Source: Deltaproteobacteria bacterium (GTDB lineage: Bacteria; Desulfobacterota; Desulfomonilia; UBA1062). Taken from it: a stretch of DNA of 64,000 nt. Position 1 is the stretch's first letter; every line of letters begins with the position of its first letter. Below are positions 33,168 through 39,204 of the stretch, in pieces. The position numbers and the translations under genes were made by a program. The notes under the pieces were generated by a model, which saw nothing but the letters and a program-made list of their open reading frames with translations, was not told where the DNA came from and did no database searches. The stretch is from the NCBI GenBank assembly GCA_018433085.1, contig JAHDRW010000028.1, forward strand, positions 4,804 to 68,803, written 5' to 3'.

Positions 33168-34478
33168 CTATGAGATTTTGAACTCGGTCTTTTTCTGCCA
33201 GGTGCCGAGCGCAATGCCCAGTTCCTCGTGCTCCTTGGAGTACTCCTCGACGGGCACCCCCTGAAGCACGGCGTCGATGGCCTGGCGGAAGGCCTTCACG
33301 CCCGCCATGGGGCCCTTGGGATGGGCGTGGATGCCGCCGCCCGAGCCGATCATGATATCTTTGCCCAGGGAGTTGATGATGTCGGGTACGTTTGCCGGGG
33401 TGATACCGCCCGAGGGCATGGGCAGCACGGGCTTCAGATTGCCGAAGGGGTAGGTGAGATTGCGGCAGGTGGCCATGAAGCGGTCGTGCATGTAGATGCC
33501 CTTGCCGCCGAGCGAGAAGGGCAGCACGATGCTGTCCGCACCGCAGAGCCTCGGGATCTTGCCGAAGATGATGGACGAGGAGATGCCCTGGTACGGCGAC
33601 ATGAAGTACGCACCGCCCACGTCCATGTGGGCCAGGATGGGCACGTTGATCTCCGGGTCTTCGGCCAGGGCGCGCATGGCCTCGGGTCCCACGGCAAGGT
33701 AGTTGACCATCATGGCGTTGGCTCCCGCTTCGATGCAGCGCTTCGCCAGGTCGAACATCCTCGGCAGCCGGTCGGTCACGTTCACGGTATAGAGCGTGTG
33801 CTCGCCCGTTTCCTCAAAGACCTGCCGCTCGATCTCCATATAGGTCTTCACGCGCTCCACCGCGCCGTTGTAGCACATATTCGCGATGAGCTCGTCGTCC
33901 TTGATCACGTCGCAGCCGCCCATGGCCACCTCGCGGAAGAGCCTTGCGCCCACCTCCAGAGGGTAGCCGCTGCAGGGCTTTATCATGTTGTTCATGATGG
34001 GGCGGTTCTTCTCGATGCCTAAGGCCTCGTACCATCCGTCGATCCCGAAGCGCGGGCCCTGGTACTGCTCCAGGGTGACTTTCGGCATCCTCAGGTCCAG
34101 AAGCTTGAAATTGGGCACCAGCGAGATGTTCCCGATCGTGGCGGTGAGCAGCATGGGAAGCTGGTCCTCCACGTTGGCAGCCGGGAACGCGATCTGGACG
34201 ATGTACTGCCGCTCCCTGACGTCCTCGGGCAGCCCGTACTCGTGCGAAGGCGCCTCGTAGACGCCGATTACCTTGGCCACGTGCCTGGCCCTGACCTCGG
34301 GCGTCTCGCCCGGCACCGGCACCCAGGTGCCCGTGGTTTGCTCGATGGCCAGGATCTGGCCCATGAGCGACATGTCCATGGCCTTGTCGGCCTTGGCCCA
34401 GTAGGTGGCGATCACATGGTTTTCCATATCGACGCTCTCGGGTATGGCAATGGGTTTGTCCGCGAATGCATCCGTCAT
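33168..34478 (-). CDS. RuBisCO large-subunit-like protein (form IV RLP)
   Basis: ATG at 34478 after an AAGGAGGG SD. 436 aa. RuBisCO-family motifs: EQTTGTW, TIGN, MIKPCSG, GGCDVIKDDE, PILAHMD, PMPSGGI, GSGGGIHAHP. Deviations at residues used for RuBP carboxylation mark it as an RLP rather than a carboxylase. Confidence 0.85.
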   Translation of the reverse strand: MTDAFADKPIAIPESVDMENHVIATYWAKADKAMDMSLMGQILAIEQTTGTWVPVPGETPEVRARHVAKVIGVYEAPSHEYGLPEDVRERQYIVQIAFPAANVEDQLPMLLTATIGNISLVPNFKLLDLRMPKVTLEQYQGPRFGIDGWYEALGIEKNRPIMNNMIKPCSGYPLEVGARLFREVAMGGCDVIKDDELIANMCYNGAVERVKTYMEIERQVFEETGEHTLYTVNVTDRLPRMFDLAKRCIEAGANAMMVNYLAVGPEAMRALAEDPEINVPILAHMDVGGAYFMSPYQGISSSIIFGKIPRLCGADSIVLPFSLGGKGIYMHDRFMATCRNLTYPFGNLKPVLPMPSGGITPANVPDIINSLGKDIMIGSGGGIHAHPKGPMAGVKAFRQAIDAVLQGVPVEEYSKEHEELGIALGTWQKKTEFKIS

Positions 34479-34534
34479 TTTTTCACCCTCCTTCTTGTAA
34501 AAAACCGTGACTGATTTCGGTTCATTTATTTTTA

Positions 34535-37584: not shown

Positions 37585-38172
37585 TACCGGCTACTCAAGA
37601 TATCCCTGCCCGGCGTACCGGGCAAATGCGCCATCCACCATGGTGCAGCGGGTACAGGTCTCATCGGCGGGGAAGTTTTTCACCCTTGTTCCCTGTTTCT
37701 GAACCAGAGACCTTCCTGCGATTTTACGATAAGACCGCCCAACCGAACACTTCATGATTTTACCGATAACCCGGAACACCAGGGGATGAATAGTGCCGAT
37801 CAGGTCAAAAACATGAGAAATCGGGCCAAAAGAGATCGTGGACCACCCATTGGCCGGTGCCCTGCCGCCTTGCATCTTTCGTCTGTTTGACTTGTACGGT
37901 AAATCATCGTAAAATTAACGACGTGCTCTTTTCGGGGACGGGTTCTCATTTAAGGTTGCTGGAACTTGAAGGTCACACCCTGCCTGCCGAGGTGGATATG
38001 GCGGGGTTTCCATTCGTTTGAAGCGGCGAATAAAACCGCTGCTTATGAGTCCTCTCCGCTGGTGGCCGCGAGTGCCGGCGACTCGCGAGAGTGCTTGATA
38101 CTTGGGGTCTCGCGGGTTGGCCGAGGGGATTGGCTGCCGCGCTTGACAGTATTGATTGAACGAGGTTTTAAG

Positions 38173-39204
38173 GTGAGGGAAAAGATTCCGTCGGACAGCG
38201 CCAGGTGGCTGGTGAGGGAGATGGCCTCGATGGGAATACCTCCCGATCGTATCCTGAAGGGCACGAACCTGCCGGAGGAATGGCTGCAGGACACGGGCGC
38301 GCTGATCACCCCTTCCCAGTACTTAAGCGTTGTGACCAATGCGCTTGAAGAGAGCGGGGATCCGGCCCTGGGGCTCCATGTGGGTCCGAGGCAGCAGCTG
38401 GGCGAGCTGGGTTTCTGGGGTTACGCCATCATCAGCAGTCCGACCCTGAGGGAGGCAAACCAGGTCGCCCTGCAGTTCTGGGAGCTGAACGGTTCCCTGG
38501 TCACCCTCGATTTCCGGGAGGGGCCGGACTATGTGGCCTGGCGGATTCTCCCCGCGTTTCCCATGGAAGACGAGCGTTTGTGGATTTTCGCCGTGGAAGA
38601 GCTTCTCACCACCTTCCATACCGCTGCCTCCTTTCTTACGAACCACGAGTTCCGCTATGCCCGGATCGATCTGTCGTACCCTGATCCCGGGCATGGGCTT
38701 AGGTATCGCGAGCTGTTTGAATGCCCGGTCTGTTTCGGATCGGAGGAGGATATATTCCGGGTGGTCGTTACCGATACGGACCGCCCCACCTTCACGGGCC
38801 ATCCCCGGATGGCGCTCGTCTGCCGGGAGCAGTGCCGCGAGCTCCAGGCCAGGCTCAGGTGGGGCGATGAGCTGACAGGGGCCATCCGGGAGATCATCAT
38901 CTCCTCCATGGGCCGGATTCCCCACCTGCCCGAGGTCGCCCGCAGGCTCGCCATGAGTCCCCGCACCCTGCGGAGGAGACTCCAGGGGCGCGGCACCACC
39001 TATCAGCACATCCTCGACGAGGTGAGGATCGAGCTGGCGAAGGAGTACCTGGCCTCCACGGGCTTGAGTGTCGACCAGATCGCGGGCCGGATCGGATTCA
39101 CCGAGGCTACCACCTTCCGCAGGGCGTTCAAGAAGTGGACCGGGAAGAACATCAGGGAGTTCCGGATGATTCGGGCGGAGCAGCAAAGGGCGGGCGTAAC
39201 CTGA
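38173..39204 (+). CDS. AraC-family transcriptional regulator with N-terminal AraC-type ligand-binding (Arabinose_bd-like) domain
   Basis: C-terminal HTH_18 pattern (LPEVARRLAMSPRTLRRRLQ..GTTYQHILDEVRIELAKEYL....SVDQIAGRIGFTEATTFRRAFKKWTG). The GTG at 38173 with a GAGG SD is proposed as the start. The ORF is open from 37966, so the start is uncertain. Confidence 0.8.
   Translation: MREKIPSDSARWLVREMASMGIPPDRILKGTNLPEEWLQDTGALITPSQYLSVVTNALEESGDPALGLHVGPRQQLGELGFWGYAIISSPTLREANQVALQFWELNGSLVTLDFREGPDYVAWRILPAFPMEDERLWIFAVEELLTTFHTAASFLTNHEFRYARIDLSYPDPGHGLRYRELFECPVCFGSEEDIFRVVVTDTDRPTFTGHPRMALVCREQCRELQARLRWGDELTGAIREIIISSMGRIPHLPEVARRLAMSPRTLRRRLQGRGTTYQHILDEVRIELAKEYLASTGLSVDQIAGRIGFTEATTFRRAFKKWTGKNIREFRMIRAEQQRAGVT

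Follow-up and report, generated by a model that had tools for sequence, protein, structure and literature searches.

A conserved operon of an FGGY kinase, a class-III aminotransferase-like enzyme and a RuBisCO-like protein in anaerobic bacteria, with a possible role in the breakdown of sphingoid-type amino alcohols

Locus organization

The 64,000-nucleotide stretch of contig JAHDRW010000028.1 analysed here, called the window throughout, comes from a Desulfomonilia bacterium and carries an operon that encodes a RuBisCO-like protein (RLP) together with an FGGY-family kinase, a class-III pyridoxal phosphate (PLP)-dependent enzyme and a fourth protein. A first-pass annotation, made from the letters alone, had described the first three genes and a divergent AraC-type regulator, and had suggested a pathway for an amino-sugar or amino-polyol. 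The operon and the genes that frame it are as follows.

35923-37584, minus strand: FGGY-family kinase, 553 aa, operon gene 1 (Pfam FGGY_N/FGGY_C)
34535-35944, minus strand: class-III PLP-dependent aminotransferase-like enzyme, 469 aa (MEYQ...), of the glutamate-1-semialdehyde (GSA)-aminomutase-like subgroup (Pfam Aminotran_3)
33168-34478, minus strand: RLP, 436 aa (MTDAF...) (RuBisCO_large and RuBisCO_large_N)
32011-33090, minus strand: operon gene 4, 359 aa, putative phosphoesterase of the zinc-dependent phospholipase C (PLC)/S1-P1 nuclease fold
38173-39204 (maximal open reading frame from 37966), plus strand: divergent AraC-family regulator (Arabinose_bd and HTH_18)
30603-31940, plus strand: FadL/TodX-family outer-membrane channel, 445 aa with a signal peptide, convergent with the operon (Pfam Toluene_X)

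The stop of the kinase gene at 35923 and the ATG of the aminotransferase gene at 35944 give an overlap of 22 nt, while 56 nt separate the aminotransferase stop from the RLP start codon (ATG at 34478), which has an AAGGAGG Shine-Dalgarno sequence 7 nt on its 5' side. These three reading frames, their coordinates and their junctions are as the first-pass annotation had read them, and Pfam matched all the families it had named. Its picture of three tightly packed genes was sound but incomplete, as it missed gene 4, which runs in the same direction 77 nt downstream of the RLP stop; the convergent FadL/TodX channel was likewise absent from it.

Conservation across genomes

A scan of one genome per species yielded 76 loci, all in metagenome-assembled genomes (MAGs), from Desulfomonilia/'Deltaproteobacteria', Syntrophales/Smithella, Desulfobacterales and Spirochaetota/Leptospirales. 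Collinearity was scored by tblastn, with the loci that have enough flanking DNA as denominators. The kinase, aminotransferase and RLP genes are collinear in 54 of 65 genome loci from several phyla, and gene 4 comes next after the RLP gene in 42 of 64. This arrangement is far beyond chance, and the conserved synteny that the proposal of a distinct pathway had presupposed is thus borne out. An exact-sequence look-up of the window RLP gave no match and close homologues were used in its stead; there are hundreds of close relatives (64-98% identity), all metagenomic. The closest locus, L009, is about 90% identical in nucleotide sequence over the region, and a Phox-21 MAG is also close.

The middle of the operon varies. 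In L087 (7155-12021; RLP 68% identical) a saccharopine-dehydrogenase-family enzyme replaces the aminotransferase. Some Smithella loci (L077:8001-14023; L075, L052, L039, L068) have the RLP and PLC-fold genes with no kinase or aminotransferase gene upstream; in their place a FAD dehydrogenase resembling GlpD and a distinct, 34% identical FGGY kinase lie in a convergent arrangement. Because the middle gene is exchangeable and actinobacterial relatives keep a TetR-kinase-RLP set only, the kinase and the RLP are the core of the operon.

Several further features of these variants were recorded. In L087 the PLC-fold gene is swapped for an unrelated 225-aa protein without a family match, and a FadH-like 2,4-dienoyl-CoA reductase-type gene lies nearby. 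The Smithella variants have a class-III aminotransferase (29-30% identical) upstream on the opposite strand. Their alternative pair was considered as glycerol kinase and GlpD and rejected, since the kinase is not GlpK (130 vs 590 bits), and the gap-pgk-tpi genes near some Smithella loci are probably a housekeeping coincidence.

The genes that recur around the operon are listed below with the number of loci.

TetR regulator: 32 loci
MFS (major facilitator superfamily) transporter: 31 loci
FucA-like class II aldolase: about 30 loci
beta-barrel protein with a signal peptide and no family match: 18 loci
short-chain dehydrogenase/reductase (SDR): 17 loci
AraC regulator: 13 loci
DUF2147: 12 loci
epimerase/3beta-HSD (hydroxysteroid dehydrogenase)-type reductase: 9 loci
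FadL/TodX channel: 7 loci and the window
PF13557 outer-membrane protein: 6 loci
Amidohydro_3: 6 loci
sphingosine 1-phosphate (S1P) lyase: 6 loci
neutral ceramidases: 4-6 loci

No ceramidase, S1P lyase, aldolase, MFS or TetR gene occurs elsewhere in the 64-kb window.

The RuBisCO-like protein

The RLP belongs to the RuBisCO superfamily (PF00016, E 3e-42; PF02788, E 7e-9; 99 RuBisCO and RLP chains of the PDB matched), and it stays below the curated cut-offs of the known subgroups. It scores 330 bits against the MtnW equivalog NF007095 (cut-off 409) and 293 against TIGR03332 (514), 238 against rubisco_III (497) and 115 against form II (489), and 183 against NCBIfam OiaX (700). A control MtnW representative, P0273, reaches 652 and 641 bits, above both MtnW cut-offs. 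Among solved structures the window protein matches MtnW enzymes best, with about 250 bits and, for G. kaustophilus MtnW, about 37% identity.

A search of 1.84 billion representatives returned a continuum of related RLPs with 35-54% identity, and a neighbour-joining tree places the window clade outside the MtnW clade, within a large, diverse assemblage of RLPs that have no assigned function and share the pattern 'E-N-K-C/K-K-H-x-x-K'. Representatives of this assemblage (P0241, P0244, P0246, P0251, P0259 and also P0248) pass no curated cut-off either. As a separate observation, assemblage RLPs that are 38-46% identical (P0244-P0264 and others) keep E60, N123, K175, K201, H294 and K334, and some, such as P0248, even keep K177 and R295.

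The residue that most directly separates the clade from MtnW is Asn117, which aligns with Lys98 of G. kaustophilus MtnW both in the HMMER alignment to 2oek and in a 113-sequence MAFFT alignment. Imker and colleagues are said to have identified Lys98 in 2007 as the general base of the MtnW enolase. All MtnW-type sequences have K at the corresponding RuBisCO position 123, while every member of the window clade has N. On profile scores, tree position and this substitution the RLP belongs to a distinct clade that is not MtnW, OiaX or true RuBisCO, which upholds the earlier suggestion that it lies outside the characterized RLP clades.

The 113 related RLPs were aligned with the clade members, using 2oek and RuBisCO sequences of spinach and R. 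rubrum as a ruler; bona fide RuBisCOs taken from the library have their canonical residues in these columns too, which validates the ruler. The clade signature is invariant across 17 full-length members (the window protein and 16 others), and MtnW-type and bona fide proteins were compared at nine positions only (60, 123, 175, 177, 201, 294, 295, 327 and 334). Spinach numbering is used.

60: clade E; MtnW-type G; bona fide RuBisCO E
65, 66: clade T, W
123: clade N; MtnW-type K; bona fide N
173: clade M (replaces T173)
175: clade K; MtnW-type K; bona fide K
177: clade C; MtnW-type variable; bona fide K
201: clade K; MtnW-type K; bona fide K
203, 204: clade D, E
294: clade H; MtnW-type H; bona fide H
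295: clade M; MtnW-type P; bona fide R
298: clade A/G (window G; replaces H298)
327: clade V; MtnW-type L; bona fide H
334: clade K; MtnW-type S; bona fide K
335: clade A/G (window G; replaces L335)
379, 380, 381: clade S, G, G
403, 404: clade G, G

In the numbering of the window protein the signature reads E46, T51, W52, N117, K167, C169, K193, D195, E196, H284, M285 and K326. In RuBisCO, K201, D203 and E204 bind Mg2+ and supply the base for the C3 proton, K175 and H294 handle proton transfers, and E60, N123 and K334 serve CO2 addition; the C1 phosphate is held by T65, W66, G381, G403 and G404 and the C5 phosphate by R295, H298 and H327. The Mg2+ and activator-lysine machinery is present in the window protein (KDDE at 193-196, K167, H284) and invariant in the clade. 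The full set for ribulose 1,5-bisphosphate (RuBP) binding is lacking, with T173 changed to M, K177 to C, R295 to M, H298 to G/A and H327 to V. On this reading the catalytic core and the site for the proximal phosphate would be preserved in the clade, and the distal phosphate site would now be an apolar pocket of Met, Ala and Val. Because the proximal site is kept and the ligands of the distal phosphate are replaced, we infer that the substrate of the RLP is a monophosphate ketol with a non-polar tail.

Such a substrate recalls MtnW (YkrW, the 2,3-diketo-5-methylthiopentyl-1-phosphate enolase of Bacillus and Geobacillus; PDB 2oek, 2zvi), which shares the fold, the KDDE carbamyl-lysine motif, K175, H294 and the proximal phosphate site, acts on a monophosphate with an apolar tail, and works in a pathway that has a phosphatase next and an aminotransferase. 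The operon could be a variant of methionine or 5'-deoxynucleoside salvage, in which the kinase stands for MtnK, the aldolase of other loci for MtnB, the RLP for MtnW, the PLC-fold protein for MtnX and the aminotransferase for MtnE. The nearest characterized relative of the RLP is indeed MtnW, the set of gene types resembles that of the mtn genes of Bacillus, and the distal pocket is apolar in both. We nevertheless consider this highly improbable. Besides the substitution of Lys98 in every clade member and the scores below both MtnW cut-offs, the window RLP keeps E60 and K334, which MtnW has lost, and its partners are an FGGY kinase, a class-III aminotransferase and a zinc PLC-fold protein where MtnW has MtnK, MtnA, MtnB, MtnX and MtnD. 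The MtnA isomerase and the MtnD dioxygenase are absent, and mtnA, mtnB, mtnX, mtnD and mtnK are recurrent in none of the 76 loci. The hosts are from lineages of strict anaerobes, the aldolase is nearer FucA than MtnB (122 vs 82 bits), Rfam found no S-adenosylmethionine (SAM) or T-box riboswitch, and uptake channels and regulators of the substrate type would be out of place in a housekeeping salvage pathway.

The other RLPs of assigned function are more distant in sequence or in context. The R. rubrum RLP (5-methylthio-D-ribulose-1-phosphate 1,3-isomerase; PDB 3qfw) acts on a ketose 1-phosphate that has an apolar tail, enolising and then re-protonating it with a shift of the carbonyl, but it is distant (111 bits) and belongs to the methylthioadenosine (MTA)-isoprenoid shunt, where the kinase, aminotransferase and PLC-fold context is absent. 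OiaC and OiaX of D-apiose catabolism (3-oxo-isoapionate-4-phosphate decarboxylase and transcarboxylase/hydrolase) are likewise encoded in a catabolic operon, act after a kinase and carry out partial reactions of RuBisCO on a monophosphate. They differ in having a kinase of another family and a sugar-acid context, an OiaX-related protein keeps R295 and H327, both lost in the window RLP, and the neighbourhood survey of the 76 loci found no genes of the apiose pathways. Bona fide RuBisCOs of forms I-III are identical to the window protein at E60, N123, K175, K201, D203, E204, H294, K334 and the C1 phosphate site, and differ from it at T173, K177, R295, H298, H327 and L335, all replaced; phosphoribulokinase and AMP-pathway genes are absent.

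The kinase and its link to S1P lyase

The kinase matches FGGY_N (E 7e-40) and FGGY_C (E 7e-25) and carries the family motifs DLGTS (11), GGTPD (253) and GGGANS (431). It is no xylulokinase equivalog, with 270 bits against TIGR01312 (XylB; cut-off 380) and 165 against PRK15027 (912). Its relatives recur beside a different PLP enzyme. In Spirochaetota a paralogue of the kinase and an S1P lyase (SPL) precede TetR, kinase, aminotransferase and RLP genes, and this lyase scores 625 bits against the Symbiobacterium SPL 3MAD. In L032 and L090 a single kinase serves both the lyase and the aminotransferase-RLP pair, and precedes TetR-aminotransferase-RLP. Protein searches and context look-ups then provided four unrelated SPL loci (L093-L096, from Desulfobacteraceae, Anaerolineales and two others), in all four of which an FGGY kinase of 527-532 aa lies directly upstream of the lyase and no RLP operon lies nearby. 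The modules of FGGY kinase and S1P lyase are located as follows.

L093: 5370-8494
L094: 2282-5379
L095: 5278-8512
L096: 5372-8524
L005: 344-3599

The SPL-paired kinases of L093-L096 and L005 are 53-59% identical to the window kinase; as a yardstick, the Smithella operon kinase is 70% identical to it and unrelated FGGY genes in other loci 34-36%. Judged by these identities, the window kinase is part of an FGGY subfamily that has S1P lyase as a recurrent partner. This pairing leads us to read the kinase as a probable long-chain-base kinase, and phosphorylation of long-chain (sphingoid) bases would be the simplest reading of its function. The module suggests that bacteria have a long-chain-base kinase of the FGGY type that has so far gone undescribed, and our literature search found no paper that mentions such a pairing. 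The two-gene module was seen in Desulfobacteraceae, Anaerolineales, Spirochaetota and other MAGs. A metagenome scan with S1P lyase added five close Spirochaetota loci only and no independent lineages.

The logic of the operon would resemble that of sphingosine kinase and S1P lyase in eukaryotes and in bacteria (StSPL, Symbiobacterium), where the C1 hydroxyl is phosphorylated and a PLP enzyme then acts at the 2-amino group, and a close paralogue of the operon kinase does adjoin an SPL homologue. The parts differ, as the operon kinase is of the FGGY and not the diacylglycerol kinase (DAGK) type, its PLP enzyme is class-III aminotransferase-like and not a fold-type-I lyase of the decarboxylase group, and an RLP and a zinc phosphoesterase follow.

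The PLP enzyme and gene 4

The PLP enzyme is a class-III aminotransferase family member (PF00202, E 3e-50), with FDEV (270) and the catalytic lysine in LGK (297-299). The label of GSA-aminomutase-like enzyme is right in so far as this is the nearest model; the scores of 310 bits against NF000818 (cut-off 398) and 303 against TIGR00713 (527) are under the cut-offs and the enzyme is not a HemL equivalog. Every NCBIfam model stays below its cut-off. Its nearest PDB entries are GSA aminomutase, D-phenylglycine aminotransferase, the mycosubtilin AMT domain and the FumI aminopentol aminotransferase. Elsewhere in the window, at 59142-61095, tblastn found a further class-III aminotransferase-like coding sequence that is 28-32% identical to the operon enzyme and presumably represents one or two unrelated paralogues.

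Gene 4 has no match in Pfam even at E <= 10, none in NCBIfam and no sequence match in the PDB, and its 199 homologues are all named hypothetical. In a 34-sequence alignment H22, E23, H61, D63, H134 and H138 are invariant, as are H183-x3-D187-x5-H193 and H220-x3-E224, and the best structural matches in a fold search are phospholipases C. The all-helical fold and the His/Asp/Glu ligand set of a trinuclear zinc site are both present. No signal peptide was found, which makes a cytoplasmic location likely. From its predicted fold and ligands the product is a trinuclear-zinc phosphoesterase-superfamily member of the cytoplasm and a new sequence family. It is set apart from the known zinc PLC/S1-P1 nuclease superfamily (B. 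cereus phosphatidylcholine-specific PLC, C. perfringens alpha-toxin, Listeria PlcB) by the missing Pfam sequence match, the cytoplasmic location without a signal peptide or N-terminal Trp1, a length greater by about 110 residues, and extra helices.

Regulation and flanking genes

Three further features lie between and beyond the divergent genes.

37672-37917, minus strand: operon leader region with a remnant of the 5' end of an SDR gene (blastn and tblastn against L009)
37887-37915, plus strand: sigma-70-like promoter match TTGACT-17-TAAAAT upstream of the AraC gene (consensus match only)
39280-40704, minus strand: amidohydrolase, 474 aa, adjoining the AraC gene (Amidohydro_1)

The regulator is an AraC/XylS protein with an Arabinose_bd domain (PF12625, E 2e-39; HTH_18, E 1e-21) and scores below the cut-offs of the QhpR, CypR and GliR equivalogs. 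Its real start is probably the GTG at 38173 (343 aa) and not the TTG at 37966, because its homologues are 336-364 aa long. An AraC gene stands beside the operon in Desulfomonilia-type loci, 13 genome loci in all, and Smithella and Spirochaetota loci have a TetR regulator in its place; local AraC and TetR regulators are of the catabolic type. Promoter and terminator scans gave nothing above shuffled expectation, the sigma-70-like match at 37887-37915 included, and the repeats seen in the leader gave no information. Neither in the window nor in the leader region did Rfam detect a riboswitch or other RNA, which argues against control by SAM or methionine.

The leader region differs from that of the closest relative. 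L009 2865-3029 aligns to window 37917-37752, and L009 3029-4840, about 1.8 kb between the AraC gene and the kinase that holds an SDR gene and an epimerase/3beta-HSD-type gene, is absent from the window. Set against L009:2865-4840, window 37641-37917 retains only the promoter region and ~30 codons (~90 nt) from the start of the SDR gene. Either a genuine deletion or a fault of the assembly could account for this loss of about 1.8 kb.

Regulation also bears on the direction of the pathway. The operon might make an amino-lipid or a sphingoid-like base, with the aldolase or the RLP making or isomerising a keto-phosphate, the PLP enzyme aminating it and the PLC-fold enzyme removing the phosphate. 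Class-III enzymes of this subgroup do often aminate carbonyls (GntE, ForI, the mycosubtilin AMT domain), and the operon does hold a phosphoesterase. Yet the kinase would be superfluous in such a scheme, genes for acyl carriers, serine palmitoyltransferase (SPT) or ligases are not recurrent across the loci, and AraC/TetR regulators, uptake channels, ceramidases and S1P lyase are traits of catabolism, so that we find biosynthesis very doubtful.

Beyond the regulator, a DUF362 protein with a twin-arginine translocation (TAT)-like signal (40783-42069) adjoins the amidohydrolase, the pair being conserved in L012 and L013; next in line are an outer-membrane efflux protein (42473-43930) and a membrane-fusion protein of the resistance-nodulation-division (RND) type (43927-45228). 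On the other side of the operon, a 570-aa protein at 27196-28908 on the minus strand has N-terminal membrane segments, a long charged repeat-like region and no family match; the closest relatives also carry it beside FadL/TodX, and the L001 and L009 copies are 73-94% identical.

Lipid or sugar as substrate

The nature of the substrate was approached through the neighbours of the operon. The FadL/TodX channel is conserved beside it in the window's closest relatives, and the recurrent uptake genes across the loci, FadL/TodX and PF13557, belong to families used for hydrophobic compounds. In Smithella the operon is flanked by a tandem pair of neutral ceramidases that carry signal or lipoprotein peptides. 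The type of amidase changes with the lineage, from ceramidases in Smithella to Amidohydro_3 in other loci and Amidohydro_1 in the window's lineage, where its position is conserved in L009, L010, L012 and L013. The Amidohydro_1 protein is a possible N-deacylase that would feed the pathway; the association is weak. Eighteen loci, among them L003 (11462-12910), encode a 485-aa protein that recurs next to the operon in Smithella; its signal peptide and C-terminal Phe suit a beta-barrel of the outer membrane, and it has no Pfam match.

The same types of parts surround the operon, spread over different lineages, as make up the sphingosine regulon of P. aeruginosa (SphR, SphA, SphBCD, CerN), which has an AraC sensor, an outer-membrane protein of the 'meta-pathway phenol degradation' kind and a neutral ceramidase (PMC3900636). 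The chemistry of that regulon is periplasmic and oxidative, with an FMN oxidase and cytochrome c, and its product is still unresolved (PMC11893366). A kinase, an RLP and a class-III enzyme are absent there.

The first-pass annotation had suggested an amino-sugar or amino-polyol, with a ketose or polyol phosphorylated by the kinase, its monophosphate enolised or isomerised by the RLP, and an amino group then moved or transferred by the PLP enzyme. In such a pathway for a soluble amino-sugar or short amino-polyol, the aldolase of other loci would release dihydroxyacetone phosphate (DHAP) and a small aldehyde. FGGY proteins are carbohydrate kinases, and the nearest models of this one are xylulokinase, gluconokinase and autoinducer-2 (AI-2) kinase; about 30 loci have a FucA-like class II aldolase next to the operon and 31 an MFS transporter, and the RLP pathways of apiose act on short sugar acids. 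The surroundings speak otherwise. No sugar ABC (ATP-binding cassette), PTS (phosphotransferase system) or TRAP (tripartite ATP-independent periplasmic) transporter and no sugar isomerase recurs in the 76 loci, where the uptake genes are channels for hydrophobic compounds; the distal pocket of the RLP is apolar, the kinase subfamily pairs with S1P lyase, and a sugar substrate would leave the ceramidases and the PLC-fold enzyme unexplained. A soluble sugar-type substrate is therefore unlikely in our view. On the channels, the ceramidases, the S1P lyase, the apolar pocket and the kinase subfamily, a hydrophobic sphingoid-type amino alcohol appears more likely than an amino-sugar or soluble amino-polyol. 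The evidence, of moderate strength and not conclusive, points to sphingoid-base catabolism in anaerobes.

The proposed pathway

Our preferred reading, to which we give a probability of about 0.4, is that the locus is an AraC-controlled four-gene catabolic operon for a sphingoid-type 2-amino-1,3-diol, served by the FadL/TodX channel. What the data show directly is the gene content and its conservation, the families and folds, the residues of the active site and the pairing of the kinase with S1P lyase; the identity of the substrate, the order of the steps and the chemistry after enolisation are all inferred. In some lineages amidases or ceramidases would free a long-chain base from N-acyl lipids. 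The FGGY kinase would phosphorylate the primary hydroxyl of the base, and the class-III PLP enzyme would convert the adjacent C2 amine to a ketone, giving a 2-oxo-3-hydroxyalkyl 1-phosphate. The head group of this product, CH2OP-CO-CHOH-R, would copy C1-C3 of RuBP or of methylthioribulose 1-phosphate. The RLP could then hold the phosphate in its kept proximal site and the alkyl tail in the Met/Ala/Val pocket, while its Mg2+/carbamylated-lysine machinery takes the C3 proton to form a 2,3-enediolate. The enediolate might be re-protonated, with a shift of the carbonyl or epimerisation, or be cleaved between C2 and C3, and elimination of phosphate is a further option. The zinc PLC-fold protein would hydrolyse the phosphoester of a substrate or product, and where a class II aldolase is present it could split a 4-hydroxy (phytosphingosine-type) analogue into DHAP and an aldehyde.

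The earlier proposal had the RLP act before the PLP enzyme; the order kinase, PLP enzyme (amine to ketone), RLP seems likelier to us. A keto-phosphate is proposed as the substrate of the RLP because the variable partner is always an enzyme able to turn C-N or C-OH into C=O. The most likely chemistry of the RLP would be a carbonyl shift by re-protonation, as in the R. rubrum RLP.

Several observations weigh against this pathway. The homologues all stem from MAGs of uncultured organisms. The known substrates of FGGY kinases are sugars and polyols and not lipids, and all the kinases discussed here score best, below the cut-off, against xylulokinase. Ceramidases occur in 4-6 Smithella loci only and S1P lyase in six genome and five metagenome Spirochaetota loci only, and the window has neither. 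S1P lyase alone would already be an oxygen-free route, and the need for a second branch is left unexplained; the scheme also fails to fix the role of the PLC-fold protein. The kinase of the actinobacterial relatives, which lack the aminotransferase gene, is only 35-36% identical. The 485-aa beta-barrel was considered as a channel for hydrophobic compounds and set aside, hhalign having shown no homology to FadL/TodX or PF13557. The roles of the active-site residues are carried over from bona fide RuBisCO and do not come from the window RLP. Finally, the closest relative has SDR and epimerase genes in its operon that the window lacks, and the pathway may therefore differ or be impaired here.

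The step of the RLP could also be of a different kind. E60, N123 and K334 are kept by the clade as in RuBisCO and the OiaX-related protein P0315 and are lost by MtnW, so carboxyl chemistry stays an option. With the same class of substrate, the RLP might act as a carboxylase/lyase that adds CO2 at C2, hydrates C3 and cleaves between C2 and C3 to give 3-phosphoglycerate and a fatty acid, or it might carry out carboxyl chemistry of the OiaC/OiaX type. P0315, whose best model is OiaX (524 bits, cut-off 700), has the same triad, only the distal-phosphate ligands and K177/T173 separate the clade from RuBisCO, and the products would feed glycolysis and beta-oxidation in fatty-acid-oxidising syntrophs. 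Against this, K177, T173 and H327, which are also catalytic in RuBisCO, are lost, no member of the superfamily is known to carboxylate anything other than RuBP, and the conserved PLC-fold gene would have no role; we regard the proposal as speculative and distinctly unlikely. Its strongest form, in which the full RuBisCO sequence of enolisation, carboxylation, hydration and C-C cleavage would run on a lipid-derived 2-oxo-3-hydroxyalkyl 1-phosphate, as the first case in the superfamily off RuBP, is very unlikely.

Significance

Our literature search found no paper that describes the RLP operon. Its four enzymes, a new PLC-fold family among them, are unassigned, and together they are a variant of RLP-dependent catabolism that is undescribed as far as searched. 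To our knowledge only a handful of RLP functions have been established, which belong to apiose catabolism, methionine salvage and the MTA-isoprenoid shunt. All of them brought a new pathway to light and informed ideas on the evolution of RuBisCO. The clade described here is abundant in MAGs of anaerobic digesters, sediments and groundwater.

If the link to sphingoid bases holds, the operon would supply the missing bacterial long-chain-base kinase, of the FGGY type and paired with S1P lyase, together with a first molecular route for the anaerobic degradation of sphingolipids and a new type of reaction for the RuBisCO superfamily. If the reading with full carboxylation were true, strict anaerobes would gain an oxygen-independent way of dismantling sphingolipids, and the clade would be a living example of carboxylase chemistry in the RLP world before RuBP-dependent CO2 fixation.

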